The notes under the pieces: model-generated
The model's input: only the letters and a program-made list of their open reading frames with translations
Databases searched by the model: none
What the model was told of the DNA's origin: nothing
Part shown: in pieces, positions 5,745 to 26,260 of the stretch
Position numbering within the stretch: position 1 is the first letter of the stretch
Layout: each line of letters begins with the position of its first letter
Position numbers and translations under genes: made by a program
Assembly (NCBI GenBank): GCA_964626935.1
Contig: CAZVIU010000003.1
Span: forward strand, 1 to 36,290
Length of the DNA: 36,290 bases
Source of the DNA: an uncultured Gammaproteobacteria bacterium
GTDB taxonomy: Bacteria > Patescibacteriota > Patescibacteriia > CAZVIU01
Direction: 5' to 3'

Positions 5745-5786
5745 AAATAAGCCATGGATTAATTGCGAATTGCAGTTTTCAGATTG

Positions 5787-5828: not shown

Positions 5829-5831
5829 TTT

Positions 5832-8054
5832 ATGTCTTTAGAAAAAGTGTGTTTTAAAATTTTGCGTCTTGGTGTTTATGCGAGCCTGGTCGCGCCTTTT
5901 TTTGTATTTCCGTGGACAATTTATCCGTATCTTTATGCCAAGGCATTATACATTAATATTATTGTAGCTGTAATGCTGCCATTTTACGTAGTTTTATTAA
6001 CCACAAATCCGGATTTTCGACCTAAAAAAAATCCCCCAACTATTGCCGTAATAGCATTTTTTCTTATCTTAATAGTTTCTAGTATTTTTAGTCCTGATCC
6101 GGGGCGGGCTTTTTGGGGAACACAAGAAAGATCAGCCGGACTATTTTTTCTGGCGCATTACTTCTTATTATTTTTAATCGCCAGCTCTATTTTTCGTAAC
6201 GAGGAGAGCTGGAAGAAACTTTTAATATTTTCTCTTTTTATAAGCATACTTGTCGCTGGCGGAACTTGGTGGGATATTGCCATGGAAAAAATCTGGAAGC
6301 CCGGAGCAGGGACAAGAACTGGCGGCACCTTGTCTAACCCTATTTTTTATGCCGCCTATCTCTTATTTCACATCCCCCCATCCCTTTGGTTAAGTTTCTC
6401 GGGTCGTAAAAAGGCGCATAAAATTGCTTGGCTGGCCGTTTTTATTTTTCTTAGTATTTCTTTGTTTTATACGCTTACTCGTGGCGCCCTACTTGGTTAC
6501 TTTGGTATGTTTTTCTTTGGTTTAATTTTAACTGGCTTATGTGTACAGAGATACCGAAAATGGATGTTTTTAGCTTCTAGTTTGATAGTAGTTTTTTTTG
6601 CCTTGATTTTTTTATTACGAACCAACCCGGTAATTTTAAAAAATCCGATATTAGGACGCCTCGCTTCGATTTCGCCCAAAGAAATAACCGCCCTAACCCG
6701 GCTAGAAGCTTGGCAAATTGCTTGGTATGGCTTTAAAGAAAAACCGATTTTAGGCTGGGGGCCGGAAAATTATTACGCTATTTTTAATAAATTTTATAAT
6801 CCAAAACTCTTGCGTTTTTCATATTATGAAACCTGGTCTGATAAACCGCACAGCATTGTTTTTGAAATTTTATCAACAACTGGTTTTTTGGGTCTAGCGG
6901 CTTATCTTGCGATCTATGGGTTGATCCTTGCTCATGGTTTTAAAAAATTGCGTAAAAAAACCATATCGGCAAAATTAACCATTCCGCTTTTAATGATTTT
7001 TGTCGGGTTTTTTATACAAAATCTTTTTGGTATTGATACAGTGAGTACCTACCTGATGTTTTATATCTTATTGGCTTTTGCCGGGTTTATTTTATATCCT
7101 ACAAATACTATAAGTCCCGTGAGTTTTGTAAGATCCGTAAACCCGATAGGAAATGTAAAACGTCCGGTAATTCTTGCCGGTATTGCAACAAGCATTCTTT
7201 CTCTTGTTTCAATCTGGCAATGGAACATCAAACCTGCTTACGCAGGCCATCTTACAGCCAAAGCAACAACCGTGGAGAATTTTGGTGCGGCTACGGATCT
7301 TTGGCAAAAAGCGTTAGATATTAAACATCCGTGGGCTTACGATGCCCAAGTTGAATACTTAAAAGGCATCACGAGAATAGTTCAGCGATCAGCAAATACG
7401 CAGTTTGAAGACTTAAAACCACTTCTCTTGCGCGGCGAGATGGCGGCAGAAGACCTAACAGCCAGTCACAAGCAAAATGCCTATTTTAATTATTTAGCCG
7501 GTAGATTTTATAGTGAATGGGGCAAGTTTGAATTTAAATATTTTGTTGAAGCAGAAAAATTATTTAAAAAATCTATTGAATTGAGCCCGCGTCGTCAGCA
7601 GCTTTTTTATGGTTTGGGTAGAATGTATTTGCTTTCCGGAAGAACTGACCAATCCTTAAAAGTATTTGAAGATTTAGTTAAGCTTGATCCCGGGGTTGAT
7701 GAATCTCACTGGTTTTATGGTTTGGCCCTGCGTCAAGCTGATCGCGGAGTCCAAGCCTACGAAGAGATAAAAGAGGCCATTCGTTTAGGATACAATGCGG
7801 TTGATTCAGGAGAGGTATTAGTTTTAGCCGAAGTAGCCACAAAAGAAAATGACCTCAAGGCGCTTCAAAAAATTTATGAAAACGCGATTGCCATTGATCC
7901 TAAGAATGGTGATTGGCACGCCCGGTTGGCGGCGTTGTATTTAGAATTGGGAAGAAAGGATGAGGCGCGCAAATTAGTTATCAGGGCAGTAGAGTTGGAC
8001 CCGACGCTTAAAGAAGAAGCAACCAAATTTTTGAAATTATTAGAAATTCAGTAG
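5832..8054 (+). CDS. Wzy_C (O-antigen-ligase family) membrane protein with C-terminal TPR domain, paralog 2
   Basis: Motifs are SPDPGRAFWGTQERSAG, TRGALLG and ILGWGPENYYAIFNKFYNPKLLRFSYYETWSDKPHSIVFEIL, with about 10-12 hydrophobic helices. TPR motifs are ELSPRRQQLFYGLGRMYLLSGR and DPKNGDWHARLAALYLELGRKDEARKLVIRAVELDP. ATG 5832 is preferred over the track's TTG 5820. Confidence 0.85.
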   Translation: MSLEKVCFKILRLGVYASLVAPFFVFPWTIYPYLYAKALYINIIVAVMLPFYVVLLTTNPDFRPKKNPPTIAVIAFFLILIVSSIFSPDPGRAFWGTQERSAGLFFLAHYFLLFLIASSIFRNEESWKKLLIFSLFISILVAGGTWWDIAMEKIWKPGAGTRTGGTLSNPIFYAAYLLFHIPPSLWLSFSGRKKAHKIAWLAVFIFLSISLFYTLTRGALLGYFGMFFFGLILTGLCVQRYRKWMFLASSLIVVFFALIFLLRTNPVILKNPILGRLASISPKEITALTRLEAWQIAWYGFKEKPILGWGPENYYAIFNKFYNPKLLRFSYYETWSDKPHSIVFEILSTTGFLGLAAYLAIYGLILAHGFKKLRKKTISAKLTIPLLMIFVGFFIQNLFGIDTVSTYLMFYILLAFAGFILYPTNTISPVSFVRSVNPIGNVKRPVILAGIATSILSLVSIWQWNIKPAYAGHLTAKATTVENFGAATDLWQKALDIKHPWAYDAQVEYLKGITRIVQRSANTQFEDLKPLLLRGEMAAEDLTASHKQNAYFNYLAGRFYSEWGKFEFKYFVEAEKLFKKSIELSPRRQQLFYGLGRMYLLSGRTDQSLKVFEDLVKLDPGVDESHWFYGLALRQADRGVQAYEEIKEAIRLGYNAVDSGEVLVLAEVATKENDLKALQKIYENAIAIDPKNGDWHARLAALYLELGRKDEARKLVIRAVELDPTLKEEATKFLKLLEIQ

Positions 8055-8160
8055 AAATTAGTTAGAAATTAAATAGAAATTAAGTATAAATAAATAGAAA
8101 TTAGCTCGCTCACGCTCGCGAAATTAGGTTACAACCTAATTTCTACTTAATTTCTACTTC
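8041..8160. repeat. Composite spacer element: phased TAGAAATT direct repeats, central hairpin, inverted AATTTCTA repeats
   Basis: TAGAAATT lies at 8041, 8052, 8063, 8074 and 8095 (11-nt phase, with degenerate TATAAATA at 8085). The hairpin AAATTAGGTT-AC-AACCTAATTT is at 8121-8142. AATTTCTA lies at 8138 and 8149. The array overlaps the paralog-2 stop codon TAG at 8052-8054. Confidence 0.85.
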
Positions 8161-8186
8161 GTTTCGTGAAGCTAATTTTTTTATTT

Positions 8187-10430
8187 ATGTTGGAAACCCG
8201 TCTCTTGCGATCAATTAAGATTTTATTGTACGCGGTACTTTTTGCTCCAGCCGTAGTAACTTACTCAACTGCTTATCCTTTTTTACATGGCAAGGTTTTC
8301 TGGATTGAGATATTCATAGAATTGCTGCTCGGTTTGTACTTAGTTTTAGTTTTAACCAGCAAAGATTATTGGCCAAAGAAAACGCCGCTTTTTTGGGCTA
8401 TGAGCGCGTTTATAGGCTCACTTGTTATTTCAACGATTTTTTCAGTTGATCGATCAATCAGTTTCTGGGGTGATTGGTCCCGTATGACCGGGCTTATTCT
8501 TTATCTACATCTTTTTGCATTTTTCATCATTTTTTCATCAGTTATAAAAAAAGATTATGAGCGACGCAACTATTTGATATTTTTTAGCTTACTCGGCACG
8601 GTTCTATCTATATTCGCCTGGATTCAAAGATACAATACAAAATTTTTAAAAGCAGTTTGGGTGGGTGGCCGTGTCGGTAGCACCATAGATAATCCGGCCT
8701 TTTTCGCGATTTTTTTAATATTCATAATTTTCATCAATCTCTGGTTAGCTTCTGTTGTTAGTAAAAAATACCGATTATTATTTTTTCTAAGCGCAATTTT
8801 TAATTTTCTAACCGTTTTTATTACCCAAACTAGAGGTGTTATTTTGGGTCTTTTTGCCGGAATGGCCATCTTTGCTTTTTTTAGAGTTATTAAGAGCACG
8901 CTTAAGTGGAAAATAGGCTTGGCAATATTTTTGGCATTGATCTTTGCCGCATTTATTTTTAAACCAACATATAATATTTTAACGCGCGCGCCTGGCCTTG
9001 GCAGAGTCTTAGAAAGTACCCTAATAGACTCCACCGCACAAACACGCCTCTTAACCTGGAAAATAGCAACGCGTGCCTGGCTCGCGCGACCAATTACTGG
9101 CTGGGGACACGAAGCCTTTTATGCGGCATTTAATAAATTCTATAAACCGGAATTTGTTCGTTTTTCTTTTTCTGAAACCTGGTTTGATAAAAGCCATAAT
9201 ATTTTTTTAGACCTTTTGTCAATGAACGGGCTCTTGGGTTTTTTTAGCTATATTTCTATTTTTATTTTTGGTTATATTGTAATAAGTCGAAGCAAAAAGT
9301 TGCCGATGGATTCGACGAGCTCGCCACAAGTGGTTACACAAAATAATGCATATATTAACAAATCACTAGTGCCACTTTATATCTCGCTAATTACGACCTA
9401 TTTCGTTGGAAATTTTTTTGAGTTTGATACGCCGGCCTCGCTTTTAGCCATATTTTTTATATTTGCCCTGATTTATTCATATAGCAACACAAATGATGCG
9501 AATGAGGCACGTTTGACGCCAGCGCAAATTGGGCGGCCAATACAGCCGTCAGTTGTCGCCCTCATCATTATAATTATCAGCATATTGTTATGGTTTGTGC
9601 CGATTAAAAGCGTTATTGCTTCCCGCGGTCTTGATCGCGCCAGTGACCTAATAAGAAATAATTTTGCCCAAGGCGCCAGCGCTTATCGCGAAATAATTGT
9701 AAAAAATAGGCGTTTTTCCGAGCCAGCAGCTCTGGAATACGCCATGCGCCTAAATCAGCTTTTATTAACTGATGACGAGGCCGTAATTAAATATAAAAAC
9801 GACTTTGATTTGACCATGAATAAACTTGAGGATAGCGCGAGGCGCCATAAATTTGATGTAAATTACGTTCTGGCCTATAGTCTTTTAGCCAATACCAGAG
9901 CCACAATGGAAACTGATTTTGCCAAAAAGGCTGAAAAATTATTAGAAGAAAATCGCTTGATGATTAATCCAGGTCGTCAGCAGGTTCTTCTCATGCTTGG
10001 AGAGACAAAACTATTATTAGACAAAAACGATGAAGCGATAAATATTTTAAAACAAGCGCAAGACTTGGCGCCAACTGCCCGTGAAATTAGTTATCGACTA
10101 GCCATTGTTTATTTTGCTAGTGGACTTGAAGAAGAAGGATTCGCGCAACTTAAGAAAGCCAAAATTTTAGGCATGGCTGATATCGGCGCGCAGCCGCTCT
10201 TAGTTTTAATAAGTGTAAACGCTTCCAGGGGTAATTGGGTAAAAGTCGCGGAACTTTACGAAAAATCTGTTAAGCTTGAGCCGAATAATGCCAAACTCTT
10301 TGCCCAAATGGCCACAGCTTATGCTACAATCGGGAATAAGAAACGAGCCCGAGAAGCTGTGGCGCGCGCTGTAGAACTTGACCCGAAATTGAAAGGAGAA
10401 GGAGAACAATTTTTAAGACAAGTTAAATAA
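8187..10430 (+). CDS. Wzy_C (O-antigen-ligase family) membrane protein with C-terminal TPR domain, paralog 3
   Basis: Motifs are SVDRSISFWGDWSRMTG, TRGVILG and ITGWGHEAFYAAFNKFYKPEFVRFSFSETWFDKSHNIFLDLL. The TPR motif is LEPNNAKLFAQMATAYATIGNKKRAREAVARAVELDP. ATG 8187 (MLETRLLRSIKILLYAV) aligns with the paralog N-termini. The track starts at GTG 8166. Confidence 0.85.
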   Translation: MLETRLLRSIKILLYAVLFAPAVVTYSTAYPFLHGKVFWIEIFIELLLGLYLVLVLTSKDYWPKKTPLFWAMSAFIGSLVISTIFSVDRSISFWGDWSRMTGLILYLHLFAFFIIFSSVIKKDYERRNYLIFFSLLGTVLSIFAWIQRYNTKFLKAVWVGGRVGSTIDNPAFFAIFLIFIIFINLWLASVVSKKYRLLFFLSAIFNFLTVFITQTRGVILGLFAGMAIFAFFRVIKSTLKWKIGLAIFLALIFAAFIFKPTYNILTRAPGLGRVLESTLIDSTAQTRLLTWKIATRAWLARPITGWGHEAFYAAFNKFYKPEFVRFSFSETWFDKSHNIFLDLLSMNGLLGFFSYISIFIFGYIVISRSKKLPMDSTSSPQVVTQNNAYINKSLVPLYISLITTYFVGNFFEFDTPASLLAIFFIFALIYSYSNTNDANEARLTPAQIGRPIQPSVVALIIIIISILLWFVPIKSVIASRGLDRASDLIRNNFAQGASAYREIIVKNRRFSEPAALEYAMRLNQLLLTDDEAVIKYKNDFDLTMNKLEDSARRHKFDVNYVLAYSLLANTRATMETDFAKKAEKLLEENRLMINPGRQQVLLMLGETKLLLDKNDEAINILKQAQDLAPTAREISYRLAIVYFASGLEEEGFAQLKKAKILGMADIGAQPLLVLISVNASRGNWVKVAELYEKSVKLEPNNAKLFAQMATAYATIGNKKRAREAVARAVELDPKLKGEGEQFLRQVK

Positions 10431-10440: not shown

Positions 10441-10553
10441 GAAATTCGGTGGAAATTTGATAGAAATTATCCCCATCTAAATCCTCCCCCTGCGATACAG
10501 GGGGAGGAAGTAGGAGAGGGTTAATTTCAACTGAATTTCGCGCAGTGAATTTC
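10441..10553. repeat. Composite spacer element: phased GAAATT repeats, GC hairpin, inverted AATTTC repeats
   Basis: GAAATT lies at 10441, 10452 and 10463 (11-nt phase). The hairpin CCTCCCCCTG-CGATA-CAGGGGGAGG is at 10483-10507. AATTTC lies at 10523, 10534 and 10548. The architecture matches 8041-8160. Confidence 0.85.
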
Positions 10554-10569
10554 TATTGAATCTCCGACA

Positions 10570-12786
10570 GTGAGTACCGAAAAACTATCAAAATATCTTT
10601 ACAGATTCATAGTTATTGGTCTGTATGCGGCATTACTCATGCCCTTTATTTATATTGATAATCTTATTTTTCCATTTATCACCGGAAAGGTTTTTATTTT
10701 TCAAATTTTGATTGAAGTCTTATTGGCAGCTTGTTTGCTCCTGATTTATTTAGACAGAAGTTTCCTGCCTAAACAGAGCCTTGTTCTCATCTCGGTTTTT
10801 TTATTTTTAATAAGCATAATTTTATCAACAATTTTTTCATATGACCCTGATCGCAGTTTCTGGGGTAATTATGAACGAATGAGCGGAACATTCACACTTC
10901 TGCATTTTGTCGCTTATTTTTTCATACTCGTTGGTATTTTACGCACGCCGCTTACCTGGAAACGGTATCTTACAGCCGCTGTAGCGCTCTCCGGAGTACA
11001 GGCGGTTATTGGTATAGCGCAATACTATTCTACGAATTTACTTTTAACAGCTGGTGGCGGAAGAATTTGGGGCACGCTGGGTAATTATATCTATTTAGCT
11101 ACTTATGCGATTTTTCACATTTTTATTGGCGCGATGCTTTTGGCGGAAGCAGGCAACAAATCGCCATCCAGTAAGAGCAAGTGGTCAAGGGTGGTTTTTG
11201 GCGGATTGATCTTCTTAAATGTGGTTGTGCTTTATCTCTCGGGCACGCGAGGCGGATATGTTGGTTTTTTATCAGGCTTGAGTTTGGTTGCTATTATTTC
11301 TGTTTTTGTAGCCAAAAATAAGAAAGTAAAATTAATTTTTATCAGCGCCCTCATTCTGGTAATTCTCTTCATGGTTATGGGGCGTGTTTATCGCAGCACT
11401 AAATTTGCGCGGAGCCTTCCCATTGTTGGGCCGCTTTTAAATTTAGACATTAAAGCCGATACTGGTTTTACTCGTTTGATCGGTTGGCAATTAGCCCTAA
11501 AGGGTTGGCAAGATAAACCAATTTTCGGTTGGGGACCAGAAAATTACTATTACGCCTTTAATAAGCATTTCGATCCTAGATCACTTGAAAGAGGGTATTA
11601 TGAAACTTGGTTTGATCGGCCGCACAATATAGTCTTTGATGTTTTATCTACCCAAGGGTTAGTCGGGCTCTTAACTTATCTAAGTATTTTTGTAAGTATT
11701 TTTATAGTTTCTTGGCGCGCTTGGCGACAAAAAATAATTTTAGGGTGGCAATTTGCCCTGTCCTTAGGGGGCGTGGGAGCATACTTTACACAAAATCTTT
11801 TCGTTTTTGATCAGCCAAGTTCTTTTCTTTTATTTTATTTGTTTATTGCTTATTTTCATTCATTGGCTGACGGAGAGCGTAAAAGTATTGAGATGGTTAA
11901 AAACGAGAATCAGAAACGTTCAAGCATTTATTTGGCGATTTTATTGGGGGTAGGGGTTTTGTGGCTGGGATATCAAAGCGTCCTAAAGCCATGGAAAGCC
12001 GGGGTTACCTCTATTGCGGCTGAAAGACTACTCACGACTGATTTTAATCAAGCTTTTGCTATATACCGGCGTGCCACCGAAATAGAAACACCATATAAAG
12101 ATGATATACAGGTTAGTTTAGCCAGAATCGTGCATGAGCGAGCCGGAACTGACGCGATCTTTATTCGCGATAATAAAGAAAAAATAGATTTTACCGTGAG
12201 CGAAGTTAAAAAATTCATTGAAATTCACCCTAACGATGTTTATCCATATATGGCCCTGGCGCAACTCTACGGACTTTTAGCCATTATTGATCCACAATAT
12301 TTTGCGCCGGCTGAAGAAGCCCTTGCCAGGGCCGCGCTTCTCTCGCCAAAACGGCAGCAGATCTATTTTGTCTGGGCCAGGTTTAAGGTCATGCAAAAAG
12401 ACTACACGCAAGCTCACGAGCTAATACAAAAAACCATAGATTTCGATCCTCAAGTTTCAGAAACTTATTGGTATCAAGCGTTAATTTATAATTCCGAAGC
12501 CAATGATGCTAAGGCCTTAGAATACATGAAAGAAGCAAGAAAAAGAGGTTATGGGTGGAAAAATACCACGGAAGCATTTTTATTCGGCAGATTGCTCGAG
12601 ATAAACAAAGATTATGATCAAATACCGCAAGTTTTAAAAGAGATCATTAGCTTAGATTCTAAGGCGGAAAACTATTATTATCTAGCCACTGCTTATCAGC
12701 GCTTGGGGAAAAACGAAGAAGCTCAAAGAGCGCTGGGAAAAGCAGTGGAGACGGACCCAAATATTTTACAAAAAATGCAAAAGTGA
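10570..12786 (+). CDS. Wzy_C (O-antigen-ligase family) membrane protein with C-terminal TPR domain, paralog 4
   Basis: Motifs are SYDPDRSFWGNYERMSG, TRGGYVG and IFGWGPENYYYAFNKHFDPRSLERGYYETWFDRPHNIVFDVL. TPR motifs are LLSPKRQQIYFVWARF, ETYWYQALIY and AENYYYLATAYQRLGKNEEAQRALGKAVETDP. The start is GTG. Confidence 0.85.
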   Translation: MSTEKLSKYLYRFIVIGLYAALLMPFIYIDNLIFPFITGKVFIFQILIEVLLAACLLLIYLDRSFLPKQSLVLISVFLFLISIILSTIFSYDPDRSFWGNYERMSGTFTLLHFVAYFFILVGILRTPLTWKRYLTAAVALSGVQAVIGIAQYYSTNLLLTAGGGRIWGTLGNYIYLATYAIFHIFIGAMLLAEAGNKSPSSKSKWSRVVFGGLIFLNVVVLYLSGTRGGYVGFLSGLSLVAIISVFVAKNKKVKLIFISALILVILFMVMGRVYRSTKFARSLPIVGPLLNLDIKADTGFTRLIGWQLALKGWQDKPIFGWGPENYYYAFNKHFDPRSLERGYYETWFDRPHNIVFDVLSTQGLVGLLTYLSIFVSIFIVSWRAWRQKIILGWQFALSLGGVGAYFTQNLFVFDQPSSFLLFYLFIAYFHSLADGERKSIEMVKNENQKRSSIYLAILLGVGVLWLGYQSVLKPWKAGVTSIAAERLLTTDFNQAFAIYRRATEIETPYKDDIQVSLARIVHERAGTDAIFIRDNKEKIDFTVSEVKKFIEIHPNDVYPYMALAQLYGLLAIIDPQYFAPAEEALARAALLSPKRQQIYFVWARFKVMQKDYTQAHELIQKTIDFDPQVSETYWYQALIYNSEANDAKALEYMKEARKRGYGWKNTTEAFLFGRLLEINKDYDQIPQVLKEIISLDSKAENYYYLATAYQRLGKNEEAQRALGKAVETDPNILQKMQK

Positions 12787-12856
12787 CATCTGTCCCCCGT
12801 AGGCGGAACATCTGACATCTGACACGGTGTTAAAAATAATATTTCAAATTGCAAAT

Positions 12857-14014
12857 TTAATATTTGTATAGCTTAACCGTTTTTATAAGCATTTTGTCAA
12901 AGTTGAATTTTTCTTGGAATTGCCTCGCGGTAGCGTGGCTTAAATTGTTGCGTAACTCTTGATTATCAATAAATTTTTTAAGAGCATTTACAATTGCCCT
13001 TGAATCAGCTGGCGGCACTAAAAGGCCGCTTGTTTCATTTTCTAACATTTCTGGTATGGCGCCCACATTTGTCGCTATAATTGGCACACCGGCTTGTATA
13101 GCTTCAAGCAAGGCATAAGGCAGACCCTCTTTTACCGAAGGGAGCACAAAGAGGTCAAAGGCCTTTAGATAGCGAGCTGCATCAGGCAGGGAGCCGATAA
13201 GATAAAAATTTTGCAATCCATAATTCTTAATTCTTAATTCTAAATTCTCGCGTTCTGGGCCAGAACCGATAATGATGAAACTTGGTTCGACCCCTTCTTT
13301 CTTAAGTACGGCTGCTGCATCAATGAGATATTCAATACCCTTGGTTTTATAAAGATTGGCGATGGTGATAATCCACAGCGGGGAATTAAGAATTGAGAAT
13401 TTAGAATTAAGCTTTGCACGCGCCTCATCGCGTGAAAGAAAACTAATTGGATTGATGCCGTGGGGGATTATGGCAAGTTTTTCCTGATCGCAGATTTTAT
13501 TTTTTAGCGCGGCGGCATAATCATATTGAGAGAGCGTAATTATTCTATCGTGAATTTTGCCAGCAACGCGCTCCATAAATACATATAGTTTTTTGCGCCA
13601 CCAAGGCAGAGGTTCGTTAAAAACCCAGCCGTGGGCAGTGTAAATTAATTTAGGTTTTAGGTTGTAGGTTGTAGGTTGTAGGAATTTTTTAGCCACTGTG
13701 CTGATGAGGCTGGCTTTGGAGCTATTTAGATGGACGATGCTGGGCTGCTCCTTTTTAAAAAATTGTGCTAGCTCAAAAATTGCCGCGATATCTTTAAGCG
13801 GATTAATTTCACGGACGAGATTTTTAAAAGTATGCGTATTAATATCCGCTTCTTTGCATTTTTGTATCAATTCCTGACTACCCTCCGCGCCAGATGCAAC
13901 AGTAATATCAAACTCATCTTTTAAGGCAGTTGCCAAATCAAAAACATAGGCTTGCGCGCCACCCCATTCGCCTTGAGTTACCACATAAATTAGCTTTAAT
14001 TTTGCTGGTTGCAT
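12857..14014 (-). CDS. GT4-family (GT-B) glycosyltransferase
   Basis: The N-terminus is KLIYVVTQGEWGGAQAYVFDLA. The C-terminal donor-binding motif is FVLPSVKEGLPYALLEAIQAGVPIIATNVGAIPEMLENETSGLLVPP (EX7E). Confidence 0.9.
   Translation of the reverse strand: MQPAKLKLIYVVTQGEWGGAQAYVFDLATALKDEFDITVASGAEGSQELIQKCKEADINTHTFKNLVREINPLKDIAAIFELAQFFKKEQPSIVHLNSSKASLISTVAKKFLQPTTYNLKPKLIYTAHGWVFNEPLPWWRKKLYVFMERVAGKIHDRIITLSQYDYAAALKNKICDQEKLAIIPHGINPISFLSRDEARAKLNSKFSILNSPLWIITIANLYKTKGIEYLIDAAAVLKKEGVEPSFIIIGSGPERENLELRIKNYGLQNFYLIGSLPDAARYLKAFDLFVLPSVKEGLPYALLEAIQAGVPIIATNVGAIPEMLENETSGLLVPPADSRAIVNALKKFIDNQELRNNLSHATARQFQEKFNFDKMLIKTVKLYKY
13221..13248. repeat. Heptamer array TAATTCT x4 inside GT4 CDS
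   Basis: TAATTCT TAATTCT TAATTCT AAATTCT is read on the minus strand as ENLELRIKNY. Confidence 0.9.
13383..13411. repeat. Heptamer array GAATTAA x4, inverted partner of 13221-13248, inside the same CDS
   Basis: GAATTAA GAATTGA GAATTTA GAATTAA G is read on the minus strand as KLNSKFSILNS. It lies 134 nt from the inverted array. Confidence 0.9.
13651..13682. repeat. Heptamer array TAGGTTK x4.6 inside GT4 CDS
   Basis: TAGGTTT TAGGTTG TAGGTTG TAGGTTG TAGG is read on the minus strand as QPTTYNLKPK. Confidence 0.9.
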
Positions 14015-14076
14015 ATAAGCATTGATCTTGATATTATAGTGTGATATAGTGGTTTATTCAAGTATCTGATTATTGA

Positions 14077-14140
14077 GCGTTTAGCGCATAGCGGTTAGCG
14101 TTTAGTTAATTGTTCTAAACCCTAAACCCTAAACCCTAGG
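14077..14140. repeat. Two heptamer arrays in divergent intergenic region
   Basis: GCGTTTA GCGCATA GCGGTTA GCGTTTA lies at 14077-14104. CTAAACC CTAAACC CTAAACC CTAGG lies at 14115-14140 and ends at the TTG start at 14141. Confidence 0.85.
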
Positions 14141-15139
14141 TTGGTGTACGAGAAACTAAAAAATGCAAAAGTATTGGTTACCGGTGGGGCCGGCTTTATT
14201 GGCTCGCATCTTTCGCGCCGGCTTTTGGATTTGGGCGCGTATGTCGTGGTTTTAGATAATTTAAGTACTGGCGACAAAAATAATTTGAAATCATGCTTAG
14301 ATTTTCCAAATTTTGATTTTTTTCAAGGTGATGTAAATATTAGAGAGCAGGTCGCCCATGTTTTTAATCATGAAAAAATTGATTATGTTTTTCACGGCGC
14401 TGCTGTTGTCGGAGTAAAAAGAGTTGAGGAGGATCCGCTTTTAGTCCTGCGAGATATTGACGGGATAAGAAATATTTTAGAACTGGCACGCGTTCATGGC
14501 GTAAAAAAAGTAGTTTTTTGTTCTTCGTCAGAAGCTTATGGCGAACCGCAAACCTTACCAGAGCGTGAGGATGGGCCGATAAATCCAAATCCGCGCGATC
14601 CTTACGCGCTTGTTAAGCTCCAGGGTGAGAATTTGATTAGAATTTATGCCGAAAAAATGGGACTTCCTGGCTGTTCTCTGCGTTATTTTAATGTTTACGG
14701 TCCCAATCAAATTGCTTCCGCCTATGGTTTTGTGGTAGGAATTTTTATAAATCAAGTTTTGCAGGGGATAAATCCAACCGTTTTTGGCGATGGCACTCAA
14801 ACACGAGATTTTGTTTATATTGATGATAATATTGAAGCCAATGTGAGAGCGTTAATTTTAGACACGGCTAATAATGGCGAAGTTATCAATGTGGGCAGCG
14901 GCAGACAAACAACCATTTTAGATTTAGCGGAAAGGATTGCTCGGTTGTCAGGAAAAGATCTGCCCTCATTGCGTTTGCCAGAAAGAAAGATTGAGATCCG
15001 TTATCGTGCCCCAGACATAACAAAAATGAAAGAATTACTTGGATTCACGCCGCAGGTTTCGTTGGATGATGGTGTGCGGAAAACAATTGAGTGGTACAAG
15101 AATTTCATTGAGCACCCATCGCCGAACGATTATATTTAG
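14141..15139 (+). CDS. NAD-dependent epimerase/dehydratase (extended SDR; UDP-sugar 4-epimerase-like)
   Basis: VLVTGGAGFIGSHL is a Rossmann motif. The SSSEAYG and YALVK (YxxxK) catalytic motifs are present, as is the FNVYGP motif. The start is TTG 14141 or GTG 14144. Confidence 0.85.
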   Translation: MVYEKLKNAKVLVTGGAGFIGSHLSRRLLDLGAYVVVLDNLSTGDKNNLKSCLDFPNFDFFQGDVNIREQVAHVFNHEKIDYVFHGAAVVGVKRVEEDPLLVLRDIDGIRNILELARVHGVKKVVFCSSSEAYGEPQTLPEREDGPINPNPRDPYALVKLQGENLIRIYAEKMGLPGCSLRYFNVYGPNQIASAYGFVVGIFINQVLQGINPTVFGDGTQTRDFVYIDDNIEANVRALILDTANNGEVINVGSGRQTTILDLAERIARLSGKDLPSLRLPERKIEIRYRAPDITKMKELLGFTPQVSLDDGVRKTIEWYKNFIEHPSPNDYI

Positions 15140-15220
15140 TAATTAAGTCATTGGTCACTAAGTCATTGAGACAATTTTAAATGACTGTTAATTACTTAAT
15201 TACTTAATTACTTAATGACT
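15140..15220. repeat. Inverted octamer arrays spanning the spacer between SDR and GT4 genes
   Basis: The left arm is TAATTAAGTCATT..CTAAGTCATT. The right arm is AAATGACT GTTAATTA CTTAATTA CTTAATTA CTTAATGA. CTTAATTA is the reverse complement of TAATTAAG. The element begins right after the stop codon at 15137-15139, and ATG 15215 lies in its last unit. Confidence 0.85.
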
Positions 15221-16495
15221 CGAGTTGTAATCTTCAGCACCTTCTACGAGCCCTTTATGTCTGGGGCCGAACGAATGGTTAAAGAAGTAGTAGAGCGGTT
15301 GCAAGAGCGCTATTCGTTTATAATTGTTACTTCTCGTTTAAGACGCAATTTGCCCCAGTTTGTTGAGGTCGAACATCGACGCACTTTGCAGCGAGCAGGA
15401 GCGAGCGAAAGAAGGAGGTTCGACCTCGATGACAGTCGAATTAAAATTGTGCGGATCGGTTTTGGTTGGAAATTTGATAAATTTTTGTATCCAATTCTCG
15501 CGCCGTTTTACGCATTAAGATATAGGCCGAAGATTGTTCACGCGATAATGGAGAGCTACGCGGGAATCGCGCTTTTAGTTTATTCGTATCTCGCCAAACT
15601 TTCAAAACCCTTAATTCTTAATTCTCAATTCTTAATTCTAACCTTACGGCGGAGATCGAATCTCGACGCACTCTGCAGCGAGCAGGAGCGAGCGAAAGAA
15701 GGAGATTCGATCTCGCATAAAAATGTATTCACCATTCTAACACTCCAGAGCGGTGACCTTGACCTACCAGAAAAACAGGCGCGGATTCCTAGGTGGCTTT
15801 GGAAGCGAATACATTGTGCGCCCAATCTCATAGTTTCTATTGGAAATTCAATGGCCGAGCGTGCAAGAAAGTTGGGAGCAAAGAGTGTTCGAGTTATTCC
15901 CAACGGTGTTAATCTTACGGAGGTCCGACCTCCAAATATACGGAGGTCGGACCTCCGTCAACATCATATTGTATGTGTTGCCCGTCTTTCTCCTGAAAAG
16001 GGAATTGAATATCTAATCGAAGCAATGCCCTTCGTAATAGCGCAATACCCTGATGCCGAGCTGGTTTTGGTGGGAAATGGCGCATTGAGAGAAAAGCTAC
16101 AAGCTACAAGCTACAAGCTACAAGCTCATGTTGAGTTTAGAGGCACGTTATCTCATGAGAAAACTCTTGAAGAAATGGCCACCTCTGATATTCTCGTTTT
16201 GCCATCTTTAGCCGAGGGCATGGGCATTGTGTTAGTCGAAGCTCAAGCGCTCGGCGTTCCAGTAATCGGTACTAATGTTGGCGGTATTCCAGATGTTATT
16301 GAGCACGAAAGAACAGGCCTGCTCGTGCCGCCACATGACCCGCGCGCAATCGCGCAAGCAGTCATTCGCTTATTTCATGATCACGAACTAAGAGAACGCA
16401 TGGTTGTTGAAGCGGAAACGCGTCTTCTTAAATTTGATTGGCAGAAGATCGCGGAAGAATATAGGAACATTTATGATCAGGTATCAAGCGTATAA
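15215..16495 (+). CDS. GT4-family glycosyltransferase carrying five in-frame repeat insertions
   Basis: The C-terminal motif is ILVLPSLAEGMGIVLVEAQALGVPVIGTNVGGIPDVIEHERTGLLVPP, and ARLSPEKGIEYLIEA is present. The N-domain is interrupted by repeat-encoded segments (see repeats at 15365, 15611, 15652, 15917 and 16094). Confidence 0.85.
   Translation: MTRVVIFSTFYEPFMSGAERMVKEVVERLQERYSFIIVTSRLRRNLPQFVEVEHRRTLQRAGASERRRFDLDDSRIKIVRIGFGWKFDKFLYPILAPFYALRYRPKIVHAIMESYAGIALLVYSYLAKLSKPLILNSQFLILTLRRRSNLDALCSEQERAKEGDSISHKNVFTILTLQSGDLDLPEKQARIPRWLWKRIHCAPNLIVSIGNSMAERARKLGAKSVRVIPNGVNLTEVRPPNIRRSDLRQHHIVCVARLSPEKGIEYLIEAMPFVIAQYPDAELVLVGNGALREKLQATSYKLQAHVEFRGTLSHEKTLEEMATSDILVLPSLAEGMGIVLVEAQALGVPVIGTNVGGIPDVIEHERTGLLVPPHDPRAIAQAVIRLFHDHELRERMVVEAETRLLKFDWQKIAEEYRNIYDQVSSV
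15365..15427 (+). repeat. 63-nt hairpin element, copy 1 (GAGGTCGAAC-N43-GTTCGACCTC)
   Basis: It has a 10-bp perfect stem and is translated EVEHRRTLQRAGASERRRFDL, with element position 1 at codon position 1. Confidence 0.9.
15611..15640 (+). repeat. Heptamer array TTAATTC x4.3 inside CDS
   Basis: TTAATTC TTAATTC TCAATTC TTAATTC TA is translated LILNSQFLIL. Confidence 0.9.
15652..15714 (+). repeat. 63-nt hairpin element, copy 2 (GAGATCGAAT-N43-ATTCGATCTC)
   Basis: The core CGACGCACTYTGCAGCGAGCAGGAGCGAGCGAAAGAAGGAG matches copy 1, which differs at one position within it (the Y). It is read in a different frame, as RRSNLDALCSEQERAKEGDSIS. Confidence 0.9.
15917..15957 (+). repeat. Two adjacent copies of palindrome ACGGAGGTCSGACCTCC inside CDS
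   Basis: Copies lie at 15917-15933 and 15940-15957 and are translated TEVRPPNIRRSDLR. The arms resemble the stem of the 63-nt element. Confidence 0.9.
16094..16127 (+). repeat. Heptamer array (AAGCTAC)x4 perfect plus a partial unit, inside CDS
   Basis: This is a direct read, translated KLQATSYKLQA. Confidence 0.95.
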
Positions 16496-16572: not shown

Positions 16573-17880
16573 ATGAAGATTTTAATAGCAACAGGAATTT
16601 ATGGAGGTTTGGGAGATATAGGTGGCCCGGCAATATATTCAGAGTCTCTTGCGCGAGAGTTGATTAAGCGCGGGCACAAAGTGACCGTTGTTACTTATTC
16701 TAGTTCATATAAATCCGAAATCCGAAATCCTCCGCCAAAGGCGGATCAGTCTCTGACTGAGAAATCCGAAACAAATCCGAAATCAGAAATTCAAAACTCT
16801 AATTTTTTATTAGTACGAGTTCAACGCGAATTACCACTGCTATTGCGGTATAGTTTTTATAAATTGACAGCACTCTGGCACGGATGGCACGCAGATATCA
16901 TATACGCTCAAGATTCAGTTTCTGCAGGATTTCCTACAATGTTGGCTAATCTAATTTTGCGAAAACCATTTATTTTGAAAGTTATTGGCGATTATGCGTG
17001 GGAGCAGTATCAAAATCAAAAATCAAAAATCAAAAATCAAAAATTAGGTATGTTGCCAAGCAGTATTGATCATAATGGTTTGTCGCTAGACGATTTTTTA
17101 AATGAAAAACCCAGTGGCAAGATTAAGGCTTTTTGGAATATTGAAAGATGGGTGGCAAGACGCGCCAACAAGATTATTGTGCCGAGCAATTATCTAAGAG
17201 GCGTGGTGCAGAAGTGGGGGATTCAATCAGCCAAGATTGAGGTGATTTATAATTCTTTTGACTGGAGCTCATTACAAAACTCGATCTCTAAAGTTCCGGT
17301 CGAGACCCCAGAGGCCACACCGCATGATACTATCTATTCAGTCGGTCGTCTTGTTCCGTGGAAAGGATTTGATACGTTGATTGAAATAATGCCCGAGGCA
17401 TTGAAAGAAAAACCAAATACAGAGCTCGTGATCTACGGCGATGGACCGATGCGTGAAGGTTTAAGATTTAAGATTAAAGATTTAGGATTAGAGACTCATG
17501 TGAAACTTTTGGGAAGAATAGATCACGCGAAGCTCTTGGAAGCCTTGCAGGGTGAGCGCAAGTTTTTTGTGCTTAACAGTTCGTACGAAGGTATGTCTCA
17601 TCAAATTTTAGAGTGTCAGGCTTTGAAAATTCCTTGCGCGGTTAGCCGCGTCGGCGGAAATCCGGAAATTGTGGAGAACGAAAAAACTGGTTTGCTTTTT
17701 GAATATAATAATAAAGAACAGATCAAAAACGCAATCATACGACTGCTTGACGAGCAAGCACTCGTCGAACATATAAGAGAAAAAGCCTATGCACAGATTA
17801 AAGATCGGCACGATTTTAATCAAATGATTGAAAAAACGATAACCGTACTCCAATCCACACTATCATACTATATAGTATGA
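16573..17880 (+). CDS. GT4-family glycosyltransferase carrying in-frame repeat insertions
   Basis: The N-terminus is KILIATGIYGGLGDIGGPAIYSESLARELIKRGHKVTVVT. GRLVPWKGFDTLIE is present. The C-terminal motif is FVLNSSYEGMSHQILECQALKIPCAVSRVGGNPEIVENEKTGLLFE. Confidence 0.88.
   Translation: MKILIATGIYGGLGDIGGPAIYSESLARELIKRGHKVTVVTYSSSYKSEIRNPPPKADQSLTEKSETNPKSEIQNSNFLLVRVQRELPLLLRYSFYKLTALWHGWHADIIYAQDSVSAGFPTMLANLILRKPFILKVIGDYAWEQYQNQKSKIKNQKLGMLPSSIDHNGLSLDDFLNEKPSGKIKAFWNIERWVARRANKIIVPSNYLRGVVQKWGIQSAKIEVIYNSFDWSSLQNSISKVPVETPEATPHDTIYSVGRLVPWKGFDTLIEIMPEALKEKPNTELVIYGDGPMREGLRFKIKDLGLETHVKLLGRIDHAKLLEALQGERKFFVLNSSYEGMSHQILECQALKIPCAVSRVGGNPEIVENEKTGLLFEYNNKEQIKNAIIRLLDEQALVEHIREKAYAQIKDRHDFNQMIEKTITVLQSTLSYYIV
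16711..16800 (+). repeat. 90-nt composite module: AAATCCG array, two hairpins, AAATCNG array; exactly 30 codons
   Basis: AAATCCG AAATCCG AAATCCT is followed by TCCGCC-AAA-GGCGGA, then TCAGTC-TCT-GACTGA, then AAATCCG..AAATCCG AAATCAG AAATTCA AAACTCT. It is translated KSEIRNPPPKADQSLTEKSETNPKSEIQNS. Confidence 0.9.
17011..17044 (+). repeat. Heptamer array (CAAAAAT)x4 perfect, preceded by CAAAAT, inside CDS
   Basis: This is a direct read, translated QNQKSKIKNQK. Confidence 0.95.
17460..17494 (+). repeat. Degenerate heptamer array TTTAAGA x5 inside CDS
   Basis: TTTAAGA TTTAAGA TTAAAGA TTTAGGA TTAGAGA is translated LRFKIKDLGLE. Confidence 0.8.
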
Positions 17881-17887
17881 TAGTGTG
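17856..17887. repeat. Perfect 32-nt palindrome spanning the stop codon of the GT4 gene
   Basis: CACACTATCATACTAT|ATAGTATGATAGTGTG. The TGA stop at 17878-17880 lies in the right arm. It encodes the C-terminal tail STLSYYIV and is a candidate terminator hairpin. Confidence 0.9.
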
Positions 17888-17926
17888 AGGTTCAGTTAGA
17901 TTGTCGCTGTTTCTACGGTGATAACT

Positions 17927-19153
17927 ATGCGGGTTTTAATAATAAGTCTTGATCAATCAATCCTAGATCCGGCGTCAGAAGCGCGAAGCAGGATGTTGGA
18001 ATATGCGGCGCTCGCAGATGGTTTATATGTTTTTGTATTTGCGAAACGCGGATCTACACGCGGATCTTCTCGCGCGGATCTACACGCGGATCAGAATTTA
18101 TTTATATATAGATTCAGTGCAAGCACTGTCGGTTGGATTAAGGCGTTATTTTTCGGTAGACGACTCGTGCGCGAAAAACAAATTGATGTAGTAAGTTCGC
18201 AGGATCCCTTTGAAACCGGCCTACTCGGATATCTAATTGTTAAATTGATGCACTTTCATACTATAAAGTATGAAAGTGCCAGTACAGTAGGTTTGAATGT
18301 GCAGTTGCACGGGGACTTTTATGGAAATCCATATTGGCGAATTGAACAATTATTGAATCGGTTGCGGTGGCATCTTGGATTATTTGTTATGCGTCGCGCT
18401 GGCAGCATTCGTGTTGTTAGCGAAAGAATAAAACAAAGCTTAGAAGCAAGAATTAAGAATCAAGAATTAAGGATTATCAAGGCTCCTATTTATACGGACA
18501 TAGAATTTTTTCGTACTGCCAAACCGATTTTCAACTTGAAAGAAAAGTATCCACAATTCAATTTTATAATTATCACCGTTGCTAATCTTGTGCCTGTTAA
18601 AAACTTAGAATTTCTTATTAACGCGATGAAAAAGCTGCATGAAATTTTAACCAATGCCGGATTGGTGATCGTCGGTGATGGTCCACTCCACAAAAAGCTA
18701 AAAGCTAAAAGCTACAAGCTACAAGCTAACAATTACATTATTTTTGAGGGTACGCAAAAAGGTTTAGTTTCATATTATAAAGGTGCTGATTGCTTGGCGC
18801 TTGTTTCCAAGTACGAGGGTTGGGGCAGGGTAGTGGTGGAGGCCGTCGCTAGCGGTTTGCCCATTGTGATGAGTGATGTTGGGTTAGCGGGAGAATTGAT
18901 TAGGGACGAAGAGAGCGGTCTTGTTGTGCTGAAGCGAAACTTCGACCAATGGAAGTTTCGCTTCGATCAGAACGCCGAAGATGACCTAGTTCGCGCGCTT
19001 TCACAAGTCTATTTTAACGAAAATTTAAGAAAAAAATTGATTGCTGGCGCGACAAATGCCTTGCAGCAGTTACCCTTAAAACAAGAAACACTAGAGTTGA
19101 TTAAAAAGTCGTGGGAGCTTGCAACGCGTAAAAGCAACGGTATTCACGATTAA
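17927..19153 (+). CDS. GT4-family glycosyltransferase carrying five in-frame repeat insertions
   Basis: MRVLIISLDQSILDPASEARSRMLEYA is the N-terminus. The C-terminal motif is LALVSKYEGWGRVVVEAVASGLPIVMSDVGLAGELIRDEESGLVV. ATG 17927 is preferred over GTG 17918. Confidence 0.85.
   Translation: MRVLIISLDQSILDPASEARSRMLEYAALADGLYVFVFAKRGSTRGSSRADLHADQNLFIYRFSASTVGWIKALFFGRRLVREKQIDVVSSQDPFETGLLGYLIVKLMHFHTIKYESASTVGLNVQLHGDFYGNPYWRIEQLLNRLRWHLGLFVMRRAGSIRVVSERIKQSLEARIKNQELRIIKAPIYTDIEFFRTAKPIFNLKEKYPQFNFIIITVANLVPVKNLEFLINAMKKLHEILTNAGLVIVGDGPLHKKLKAKSYKLQANNYIIFEGTQKGLVSYYKGADCLALVSKYEGWGRVVVEAVASGLPIVMSDVGLAGELIRDEESGLVVLKRNFDQWKFRFDQNAEDDLVRALSQVYFNENLRKKLIAGATNALQQLPLKQETLELIKKSWELATRKSNGIHD
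18047..18092 (+). repeat. Four copies of CGCGGATCT spaced 12/14/12 nt inside CDS
   Basis: CGCGGATCTACA CGCGGATCTTCTCG CGCGGATCTACA CGCGGATC is translated RGSTRGSSRADLHAD. The first two copies are read as R-G-S and the last two as A-D-L. Confidence 0.9.
18250..18279 (+). repeat. Hairpin GCACTTTCATACT-ATAA-AGTATGAAAGTGC inside CDS
   Basis: It has a perfect 13-bp stem and is translated MHFHTIKYESA. It shares the TCATACTAT..AGTATGA core with the palindrome at 17856-17887. Confidence 0.9.
18448..18475 (+). repeat. Heptamer array AAGAATT x4 inside CDS (same family as 13383 and 15611)
   Basis: AAGAATT AAGAATC AAGAATT AAGGATT is translated RIKNQELRI. Confidence 0.9.
18695..18729 (+). repeat. Heptamer array AAGCTAM x5 inside CDS
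   Basis: AAGCTAA AAGCTAA AAGCTAC AAGCTAC AAGCTAA is translated KLKAKSYKLQAN. The family and protein position match 16094-16127. Confidence 0.95.
18931..18964 (+). repeat. Hairpin GAAGCGAAACTTC-N8-GAAGTTTCGCTTC inside CDS
   Basis: It has a perfect 13-bp stem and is translated KRNFDQWKFRF. It shares the GAAGCG/CGCTTC core with the REP-like family at 3181-4211. Confidence 0.9.
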
Positions 19154-22538: not shown

Positions 22539-23567
22539 ATGGAACTTTTGATTATTACTCAGAAAGTTGATTTAGTCGATCCAATACTCGGCTTTTTTCA
22601 TCGTTGGATTGAAAAATTTGCGCATCACTTTGAGAGAGTAGAAGTTATCGCGTTGGAAGTTAGAGAACATAATCTACCAGCAAATGTTTCAGTGCATTCC
22701 TTGGGAAAAGAAAAAGGTTATGGAAGATTGCATCGTGCTATATTCTATATTCTGTATTCTATATTCTTGCGATATGACGCGGTTTTTGTTCACATGAACC
22801 CAGAATATCTCGCTCTTTTCGGTTGGTACTGGAAATTGATGGGCAAACGCACAGCGCTATGGTACACGCATAAATCAGTAACCTGGTGGTTATGCTTGGC
22901 GGAGAAATTTGCTGATAAGATTTTTACCGCATCGCGCGAAAGTTTTCGCTTGCCGAGCAGAAAGGTTGAGATTATTGGACATGGGATAGAGATGGAACTT
23001 TTCATAAGAACACAAGAACACAAGAACACAAGAACAAATTTACGATTATTATCGGTCGGAAGAATAGCATCCAGTAAAGACTTGGAGACGATTATTCGCG
23101 CAGCTCAAAAATTATCTAACGACGGTATACAGGTTACGCTTGATATTGTTGGAGCGCCTGTAATGGGTGCTGATTTTGAATATGAGAAAGCACTGCATGA
23201 GACTATTAAAAATCTAAACCCTGAAGACGTCATTAAATTTTTAGGTCCGAAGAATTATGAAGGAATGCCCAAGATTTATGGTGAACACGATTTATTGATT
23301 CATACATCCAAAACAGGAAGTGTTGATAAAGTCGTTCTTGAAGCGCTCGCCTGTGGCACGCCAGTAATAAGTTCAAGCGAGGCATTCCACGATCTTCCAG
23401 AATATCTGCGGTTTAAGGAAAATGATGTAGAAGATTTGGCCAGTAAAATAATTAATTTCACGCAAGTCAAACCAGACATATCAAAATTGACTGAATTAGT
23501 TCGTAGCCAAAGCAATCTCGACACACTAATTAAAAAAATATCCAATTTTCTAAATTCTGCATTCTAA
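22539..23567 (+). CDS. Glycosyltransferase (GT-B/GT4-like, short form)
   Basis: Motifs are LLIITQKVDLVDPILGFFHRWIEKFA, LSVGRIASSKDLETIIRAA and LLIHTSKTGSVDKVVLEALACGTPVISSS. The stop codon lies inside a heptamer array. Confidence 0.8.
   Translation: MELLIITQKVDLVDPILGFFHRWIEKFAHHFERVEVIALEVREHNLPANVSVHSLGKEKGYGRLHRAIFYILYSIFLRYDAVFVHMNPEYLALFGWYWKLMGKRTALWYTHKSVTWWLCLAEKFADKIFTASRESFRLPSRKVEIIGHGIEMELFIRTQEHKNTRTNLRLLSVGRIASSKDLETIIRAAQKLSNDGIQVTLDIVGAPVMGADFEYEKALHETIKNLNPEDVIKFLGPKNYEGMPKIYGEHDLLIHTSKTGSVDKVVLEALACGTPVISSSEAFHDLPEYLRFKENDVEDLASKIINFTQVKPDISKLTELVRSQSNLDTLIKKISNFLNSAF
22738..22767 (+). repeat. Heptamer array CTATATT x4 inside CDS
   Basis: CTATATT CTATATT CTGTATT CTATATT is translated AIFYILYSIF. 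Confidence 0.85.
23006..23037 (+). repeat. Octamer array (AAGAACAC)x3 plus AAGAACAA inside CDS
   Basis: This is a direct read, translated RTQEHKNTRT. The family matches 4901 and 31355. Confidence 0.95.
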
Positions 23568-23582
23568 ATTCTATATTCTTGT
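23548..23582 (+). repeat. Heptamer array TTCTNNA x5 containing the gene's stop codon
   Basis: The array is TTCTAAA TTCTGCA TTCTAAA TTCTATA TTCTTGT. TAA 23565-23567 lies in unit 3. Confidence 0.85.
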
Positions 23583-23686: not shown

Positions 23687-23707
23687 AAGCTACAAGCTAT
23701 AAGCTAT
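23687..23707 (+). repeat. Heptamer array AAGCTAY x3 abutting asnB-like start codon
   Basis: AAGCTAC AAGCTAT AAGCTAT ends 2 nt before ATG 23710. Confidence 0.9.
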
Positions 23708-25557: not shown

Positions 25558-25580
25558 AAACATTAAAACATGAAAATAAT
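25549..25580. repeat. Octamer array AAAACATG x4 (reverse complement of the GTTTTCAT family) over the stop/start junction
   Basis: The array is AAAACATG AAAACATT AAAACATG AAAATAAT. It contains the asnB-like stop (25555-25557) and the ATG at 25554. Confidence 0.9.
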
Positions 25581-26258: not shown

Positions 26259-26260
26259 TC

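Follow-up and report, generated by a model that had tools for sequence, protein, structure and literature searches.

The window analysed here, a 36,290-nt stretch of metagenomic DNA (contig CAZVIU010000003.1), contains open reading frames (ORFs) that read through short tandem arrays of 7- or 8-nt units, and the closest homologues of these ORFs are annotated Patescibacteria. A preliminary description of the window proposed that five such arrays, lying in glycan genes, act as independent phase-variation switches that generate combinatorial variation of the cell surface. We found that at least one of the five, the array at 23006, has a natural OFF allele, in which the loss of a single unit frameshifts a glycosyltransferase gene. 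Taken together, our results leave us, at about even odds, with a lineage-wide class of slippage-prone repeats that are able to knock out dispensable glycan genes, and not with a dedicated five-gene combinatorial switch.

The loss of one unit switches off a glycosyltransferase gene

The features concerned are the following:
22539–23567, + strand: GT4-like glycosyltransferase gene, ON in the window and OFF in contig L136
23006–23036, + strand: (AAGAACAC)x3.9, in the linker between the two domains of this GT4-like protein

All five arrays of the preliminary description are present, exact and in frame, inside long ORFs that according to Pfam encode four GT4 glycosyltransferases and one O-antigen-ligase-like Wzy_C+TPR protein. 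The array at 23006 is coding, as described, but it has 3.9 units instead of three, and the array given as AAGCTAM x5 at 18695 is AAAAGCT x3 followed by ACAAGCT x2 at 18693–18729.

To compare unit numbers within the strain, contigs were retrieved by exact-protein look-ups from five other assemblies (JGI 3300022563, ENA ERZ27245644, JGI 3300009691, Logan SRR5747841 and JGI 3300017437), which may not be independent of one another; the look-ups with ORF 15215 in its 426-aa form and ORF 5820 in its 740-aa form returned no match, and region 1–8748, including the 4900 array, thus lies outside this comparison. Over the 62 kb aligned in total, the window differed from the five assemblies by two distinct single-nucleotide polymorphisms (14548 and 15074) and one indel. 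This sole indel was an 8-nt deletion corresponding to exactly one AAGAACAC unit of the array at 23006–23036. It was found in L136 (ENA ERZ27245644), a contig with 0 mismatches to the window over 8.9 kb apart from the missing unit, so that the array has 2.9 units in L136 and, as in the window, 3.9 units in three other assemblies (L135/L142, L137 and L138). The GT4 gene of L136 is frameshifted and stops after 176 aa, and the gene calls of the source give two products, of 176 and 134 aa. We regard this allele as real, because a 31-nt array cannot collapse in a k=141 assembly graph, a graph size that we infer from the contig name (k141_...).

The same comparison showed no change at the arrays 15610, 16094, 16711, 16761, 17012, 17456, 18046, 18442 and 18693 in three other assemblies, and about 20 further arrays besides 16094, 17012 and 18693 were without unit change in 2–4 further assemblies. 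Thus, the comparison of unit counts across strains, proposed as a check on phase variation, revealed a difference at 23006, but none at 16094, 17012 and 18693. With 1 change per 81 array-by-contig comparisons, an array change appears to be about 250 times likelier than a change at a single nucleotide, which is a rough ratio based on one event. A non-coding AAGCTAA array had 8 versus 10 units in contigs that were 99.6–99.96% identical. The phase-variation reading is partly supported, by an ON/OFF polymorphism at one of the five arrays, but orthologues (42–71% identity) keep the length of their arrays.

Several contigs of different assemblies end at the same positions of the window (15187, 18871–18874, 24084 and 26620), which suggests within-sample heterogeneity at these sites. 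Position 15187 is the last base before an array of TTAATTAC units, and contigs of two other assemblies begin exactly there; 24682–26619 is covered by no other assembly. The locus is also mosaic between strains: the contig from JGI 3300017437 (L141) is identical to the window over 11441–14697 and unrelated beyond, and from 14697 of the window, compared with 1–1440 of L141, there is a chimeric epimerase, with the first 186 aa the same and a different C-terminus, followed by a different downstream gene.

Arrays of about four units are abundant in the window and dense in GT4 genes

The preliminary description counted too few arrays. Tandem Repeats Finder reported 29 arrays at a score of at least 40, as compared with 1.6 in shuffled sequences, and 18 versus 0.2 at a score of at least 50; units of 7 or 8 nt account for nearly all of the 29. 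Perfect arrays of at least 3 copies numbered nine, every one with a period of 7 or 8, where about none would be expected from 100 Markov shuffles. About 17 of the arrays are coding and about 9 are intergenic or at gene edges. Their lengths have a mode of about 28–35 nt, i.e., 4–5 units for 7-mers and 3.5–4 units for 8-mers, and 2-copy arrays are not in excess in the length distribution. A single gene contains up to four arrays, at relative positions of 0.1–0.99. The arrays are located within the body of the genes and not at their 5' ends.

More than 15 different AT-rich units are represented, with neither a single G-rich consensus nor G-tracts. The GT4 genes contain 14 of the 20 coding arrays of the locus, which corresponds to 14 arrays in 7.2 kb of GT4 genes versus 1 in 17.6 kb of other enzyme genes (p = 4e-6, with GT4 paralogues not mutually independent). 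As in simple sequence repeat (SSR) contingency loci, units that are not a multiple of 3, here of 7 or 8 nt, lie inside the ORFs of surface-structure genes, here those for GT4 and Wzy_C proteins, and the ORFs read through them; like dispersed heptamer and octamer elements, it has about 4 tandem units of 7–8 nt in many copies in and between genes. A single conserved G-rich unit per family, of the GGACCGG or GGGNATC type, was not found among the window arrays, and Rfam and tRNA scans of the window returned no match.

The array at 16094 encodes a helix of a GT4 protein

The array at 16094 and its gene comprise the following features:
15215–16495, + strand: GT4 glycosyltransferase gene with the AAGCTAC array, assigned by Pfam, homology and predicted structure
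16094–16126, + strand: perfect (AAGCTAC)x4.7, in this GT4 gene, encoding KLQATSYKLQA
15610–15639, + strand: CTTAATT x4.3, in the same gene, kept in the orthologue L001 at 2521–2552
15188–15220, + strand: (TTAATTAC)x4.1, just upstream of and overlapping the start of the same gene

In the AlphaFold2 model of the GT4 protein (mean pLDDT, the predicted confidence per residue, 78), the array at 16094 corresponds to helix 292–305 (pLDDT about 85–90), which lies between strands 282–286 and 306–310 of the C-terminal Rossmann domain. Alignments showed that the array peptide takes the place of the equivalent helix of ordinary GT4 proteins and adds no length. The array was unchanged in L142, L136 and L143. 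In L001, a contig with a 71%-identical orthologue of ORF 15215, the same site is occupied by an array that is 33 nt long as well, but degenerate, with 84% unit matches (AGCTAAA AGCTGTA AGCTATA AGCTACA AGCTAG), and the flanks are 79% identical to those in the window. The array has neither a partner array nor a predicted RNA structure (z = -0.1). All the available data show it as a stable segment that encodes a helix. A scan of contigs with the GT4 protein revealed no close relative, the best match being 41% identical.

The same gene contains other repeats. A palindromic element of about 64 nt (...TCGACGCACTyTGCAGCGAGCAGGAGCGAGCGAAAGAAGGAG...) occurs in frame twice, at 15365–15428 and 15652–15715, and is absent from the L001 orthologue, and a GGAGGTCCGACCTCC pair is present at 15917–15958, where L001 has a longer element. 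The residues encoded by the palindromic segments have pLDDT values below 50. These in-frame elements resemble the Rickettsia palindromic elements.

Units turn over at conserved array sites

Other arrays of the GT4 genes and their neighbours are listed below:
12857–14014, coding on the - strand: GT4 gene with AGAATTA x4 at 13221–13248 (helix after the GSGP motif, LELRIKNY), CTTAATT x4.1 at 13383–13411 (inter-domain linker) and CCTACAA x4.6 at 13651–13682, units given on the coding strand
17012–17044, + strand: perfect (AAAATCA)x4.7 (= CAAAAAT), in GT4 gene 16573–17880, invariant in L142, L136 and L143
16711–16730 and 16761–16790, + strand: two AAATCCG-type arrays, in GT4 gene 16573–17880
17456–17494, + strand: AAGATTT x4.9, helix after the GDGP motif of GT4 gene 16573–17880 (LRFKIKDLGL), kept in L001 at 4232–4258
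18442–18476, + strand: AAGAATT-type array, inter-domain linker of GT4 gene 17918–19153
18693–18729 (listed extent to 18737), + strand: AAAAGCT x3 then ACAAGCT x2, helix after the GDGP motif of GT4 gene 17918–19153
22738–22767, + strand: CTATATT x4.3, in gene 22539–23567
23548–23579, + strand: TTCTAAA-type array, across the stop codon of gene 22539–23567

A codon-level table showed that the window paralogues 12857, 16573 and 17918 have an array at the same helix as 15215, starting from a conserved Leu. The five orthologues of ORF 17918 (42–66% identity), two of which come from Patescibacteria metagenome-assembled genomes of NCBI, all have an in-frame array of 31–33 nt at this helix site, but with units that differ from the AAAAGCT of the window: CTAAACG, AGCTTAC, AGAATTA, a perfect CTACAAG x4.4 and a perfect 8-mer, TTACAGCT x4.1. 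In one of them, L004, every unit carries the substitution of CTAAAAG by CTAAACG relative to the window. In the sister species, the 8-mer array does not differ between three near-identical assemblies. The unit number at the helix site is about 4.1–4.7 (31–33 nt) in six orthologues and three paralogues, with no wide spread. A 7-nt unit read in three frames would give a 7-residue period, which fits the Leu(i)/Leu(i+7) pattern of the helix.

The inter-domain linker of GT4 proteins is a second recurrent site of arrays (13383, 18442 and 23006). The orthologues in L004, L005 and L006 have arrays at the 18442 linker site, the L006 array being the reverse complement, and the arrays 13221–13248 and 13383–13411 are inverted repeats of each other. 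Other arrays are not shared: the L001 orthologue lacks the region of the 17012 array, being 16 aa shorter at that point, and also the 18-aa segment of the 16711–16790 arrays; thus, arrays 16711, 16761 and 17012 are lineage-specific in-frame insertions.

As position, length and frame are conserved while the sequence of the unit turns over, a homogenising process is needed. At the level of the sequences compared, this indicates that the arrays are probably homogenised internally under selection for frame and length.

Such selection has a visible counterpart in stop codons. No stop codon occurs, whatever the frame, in the units of the five perfect coding arrays, and the departures of near-perfect arrays from their consensus often fall on would-be in-frame TAA codons. 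In arrays 15610 and 13221 the would-be in-frame TAA is the sole mismatch, in array 18693 TAA is changed to TAC exactly at the would-be stop, and the TAA of array 23548 is the stop codon of gene 22539–23567. The preliminary description noted that many sister arrays are imperfect, which would lower their slippage rates. Imperfect arrays do exist, but some of them, with mismatches at would-be TAA codons, are as perfect as an open frame allows.

Some modules are shared between distant arrays. Positions 1033–1065 of L006 and 13215–13250 (- strand) of the window carry a near-identical module, LELRIKNYGLQN, in which 36 nt include 4 differences, all synonymous, and 988–1018 of L007 and 16094–16126 of the window share 30 identical nt coding for LQATSYKLQA, in different GT4 paralogues and species. 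Either the arrays have converged on a few permissible units, or paralogues have exchanged them. A 28-nt palindrome rich in A and T, CACTATCATACTATATAGTATGATAGTG, is present at 17858–17885, at the 3' end of gene 16573–17880 and across its stop codon, and again at 18251–18278, in frame in GT4 gene 17918–19153, whose orthologues have a different insertion there.

Arrays of the same class occur in essential genes of other bacteria

A metagenome scan for AAGCTNN x3.7 detected at least 120 loci; by design it is biased to that core and uninformative on whether AAGCT is special. Among the matches listed, the longest non-coding arrays have about 23 units, apart from a single outlier tract with about 90, and in-gene arrays have 3.9–4.7 units and are in frame. 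The array-bearing genes among these matches are gyrA, leuS (three arrays), aspS, and genes for a class-V aminotransferase, a pseudouridine synthase, DegT, GT9 and GT4; genes were Pfam-confirmed or recognisable, and HypF and a GH57-like enzyme were named by eye. As essential genes cannot be phase varied, such in-frame arrays exist without a switching function. The presence of this array class in gyrA, leuS and aspS of other bacteria thus speaks against reading the arrays of the window as devices reserved for glycan switching. In L019, L039 and L040, 165–175 nt around an AAGCTCA array are 87–92% identical, which suggests that some arrays travel within a larger dispersed element.

Switching as a possible by-product of a general repeat class

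We propose that strand slippage or misaligned templated repair would generate the arrays of about 30 nt with 7- or 8-nt units and maintain their homogeneity, and that within genes only in-frame, stop-free versions would survive. The survivors would be translated as peptides with a 7- or 8-residue period in tolerant sites, such as the surface helix after the GxGP motif and the GT4 inter-domain linker. Since the unit is not a multiple of three, the gain or loss of one unit destroys the gene, and the arrays would thus be frameshift hot spots that switch dispensable glycan genes off and presumably on again; one OFF case was seen, and the remaining steps are drawn from sequence patterns. That switching is a by-product of a general repeat class seems to us about an even proposition.

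Several points weigh against this interpretation. Array density in GT4 genes is about 20 times that in the remaining enzyme genes of the locus, which a dedicated contingency role would predict as well, although part of the GT4 excess may come from the shared ancestry of the paralogues. One-unit slippage in either direction can hardly keep in-gene arrays perfect if the cell does not tolerate frameshifted intermediates, and this also favours ON/OFF cycling. Moreover, the evidence on essential genes comes from contigs of other organisms and not from the genome of the window, the homogenising mechanism is one that we infer, and the single variant allele was seen among five assemblies that may not be independent.

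Comparison with contingency loci

SSR contingency loci switch reversibly at about 1e-5 to 1e-2 per generation. It is possible, though we doubt it, that the arrays of the window are such loci, kept by second-order selection for reversible, high-rate ON/OFF switching of glycosyltransferases and for combinatorial glycan variation against phage or a host partner. The one-unit frameshift allele at 23006 in an otherwise identical haplotype is what such switching would produce, and the enrichment in GT4 genes, the arrays that stay perfect while the flanking DNA diverges, and the mosaic structure of the locus between strains, as expected of a surface structure under diversifying selection, point the same way.

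There is also a precedent. The neuO O-acetyltransferase gene of the CUS-3 prophage of E. coli K1 has a phase-variable heptanucleotide coding repeat, AAGACTC, located at the 5' end, with 3–53 units, 20 being the commonest, and 65.6% of genomes in the OFF state (PMC13001214). As in neuO, a translated 7-nt unit lies in a gene for a surface-glycan enzyme, and a change by one unit frameshifts it. Unlike in neuO, the window arrays have only 3–5 units, lie mid-gene, are many per locus with as many as four in one gene, do not vary in unit number among the orthologues, and changed in 1/81 comparisons, with 16094, 17012 and 18693 invariant. In H. influenzae, hepta- and octanucleotide tracts at hmw1A/hmw2A and an intragenic (AATTTTG)14 tract with a frameshift have been described; these tracts have 13–38 units, are few per genome and differ between nearly all strains, and short tracts of threshold length, which mostly show substitution changes, were not deemed phase variable (PMC2651432). 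The window arrays resemble the H. influenzae contingency loci in that unit changes by slipped strands would alter the expression of a surface structure, and differ from them in being short and numerous per locus. The abundance of the same array class between genes, and in essential genes elsewhere, also speaks against a dedicated switch.

The opposite explanation, that the arrays are stable low-complexity repeats with negligible switching and that the L136 allele arose by a single pseudogenisation event, in a strain with no further need of the enzyme, or is an artefact of assembly, appears unlikely. Short arrays, 80 of 81 array-by-contig comparisons without change, the constant 8-mer array of the sister species in its three assemblies, and array position and length conserved over 42–71% protein identity all agree with it. 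Nonetheless, the single indel within the 62 kb matches one repeat unit exactly, the k=141 graph suggested by the contig name would not collapse the array, perfect arrays beside flanks that have diverged by 21% need ongoing homogenisation, and a long non-coding array of the same family differs by two units between near-identical contigs.

Paired arrays form predicted hairpins

The octamer, intergenic and gene-edge arrays are as follows:
4900–4941, + strand: perfect (CAAGAGAA)x5.25 (= AAGAGAAC), in Wzy_C+TPR gene 3306–5744, predicted to pair with 5012–5041
5012–5041, + strand: (TGTTTTCA)x3.8, partner arm of the 4900 array, encoding part of a transmembrane helix (FMFSCFNVLV)
14076–14138, no strand assigned: inverted intergenic heptamer pair, AGCGTTT x4.3 and CTAAACC x3.4
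23687–23707, + strand: intergenic AAGCTAC/AAGCTAT x3, 3 bases upstream of an asnB-like ATG
25549–25576, + strand: (AAAACATG)x3.5, across the stop of 23710–25557 and the start of 25554–26258
31355–31424, + strand: two octamer arrays, AGAACAAA-type and TGTTTTAA x4.2, one long hairpin between genes 30519–31379 and 31398–32294

Complementary array pairs form long predicted hairpins that use G-U pairs. The fold of 4890–5050, with 4900 paired to 5012, has -42.1 kcal/mol (z = -5.5), and that of 31350–31430 has -25.1 kcal/mol (z = -5.9), with 0/200 shuffles as stable. The octamer hairpin at 31355–31424 is identical in one other assembly (L132). Both hairpins, the intergenic one at 31350–31430 and the one inside the ORF at 4890–5050, share the same AGAACA-type and TGTTTT-type octamer families, and a third TGTTTTCA-type array, reversed, is present at the stop/start junction 25549–25576. 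The spacers between the four tandem Wzy_C+TPR paralogues contain GAAATT motifs phased every 11 nt with inverted partners (8033–8104 with 8137–8159, 10441–10468 with 10523–10573, and 5788–5827). The fold of 8030–8170, in which 8033 is paired with 8137, has z = -3.2, and these spacers could be terminators, processing hairpins or DNA-bending phased A-tracts.

For ORF 3306, no orthologue above 30% identity was found. ORF 3306–5744 is about 80 aa longer than its homologues, and copies of a GC-rich palindrome (GGCCCGAAGCGCC...GGCGCTTCGGGCC) at 3183–3248, 3313–3387, 3676–3708 and 4176–4213 lie upstream of it and in frame in its 5' part, where they encode SPKRLxRFGP-like segments. The 979-aa ORF 128–3067, in which Thr, Ser, Ala, Gly and Val are abundant, contains no tandem arrays, lacks a Pfam match and may encode a surface protein.

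Mazel et al. are said to have described, in 1990, cyanobacterial short tandemly repeated repetitive (STRR) heptamers in genome-wide arrays in which about four units are preferred. The "four tandem heptanucleotide/octanucleotide repeat" elements of Geobacter metallireducens, proposed to be regulatory but of unproven function, number in the dozens and lie both inside genes, some of which contain several, and in intergenic DNA, with some opposite-strand pairs and one GC-rich consensus per family, e.g., GGACCGG in 49 copies (PMC2700814). The GGGNATC heptamers of Xanthomonas and Nostoc are likewise genome-wide with about four units preferred, and are G-rich and G-quadruplex capable (PMC4692102). 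As arrays, those of the window have their closest described analogues in these two groups. They share with the Geobacter elements about 4 units of 7 or 8 nt, a location in and between genes, and some pairing on opposite strands; in contrast, their units are AT-rich and vary between sites, and a frameshifting unit-number polymorphism is shown here. Unlike the Xanthomonas and Nostoc heptamers, they have no G-tracts and are mostly coding.

It is improbable that the arrays are functional nucleic-acid elements of the Geobacter kind, RNA hairpins or regulator binding sites whose coding location is incidental: the three paired folds above, the arrays at gene starts or stops and the preference for about 4 units also in Geobacter, Xanthomonas and Nostoc agree with such a function, but the array at 16094 has neither partner nor structure, the fold of the 14066–14145 pair is not significant (z = -0.8), no Rfam match was obtained, the units are highly diverse without one recognisable motif, and the variety of units at one orthologous site speaks against binding that depends on a particular sequence.

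Possible origin of the array size

A different kind of process, in which arrays are written or homogenised with preservation of their length, by templated patch synthesis or within-array conversion instead of stepwise slippage, seems a long shot. It is suggested because the size of about 30 nt, or about 4 units, is common to 7- and 8-mers, to coding and non-coding arrays, and to Geobacter, Xanthomonas, Nostoc and Patescibacteria, and because one orthologous site has been overwritten by different units at unchanged length. If true, such a process would provide genes with self-renewing hypermutable tracts, usable by bacteria of the candidate phyla radiation (CPR) for surface-glycan switching.

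Two simpler ideas were discarded. The notion that 4.4–4.7 units represent one native unit plus three added to keep the frame fails as a whole explanation, as non-coding arrays (L035, L110 and the window) have the same size and array proteins are no longer than array-free homologues at the helix site. A role for the palindromic AGCT/AATT cores, e.g., as restriction-modification sites, was dropped, as many units do not contain them.

Significance for Patescibacteria

The lifestyle of Patescibacteria (CPR) is one of attachment to other cells, and their surface glycans probably have a part in contact with hosts and phages. No paper on phase variation in this group surfaced in our literature searches, as judged from titles and abstracts. 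Frameshifting by SSRs is a known mechanism; what is new is, going by these searches, the phylum, and further the combination of very short arrays and constant position and length with turnover of the units, and the evidence that repeats of this class occupy essential genes as well. The locus offers a concrete case, with a natural one-unit frameshift allele in a glycosyltransferase gene and about 25 further arrays to genotype in existing metagenomes. In addition, it indicates that short 7- and 8-nt arrays persist for long in genes at a fixed position and length while their units turn over, which bears on the unexplained "four heptamer" repeats of several phyla.

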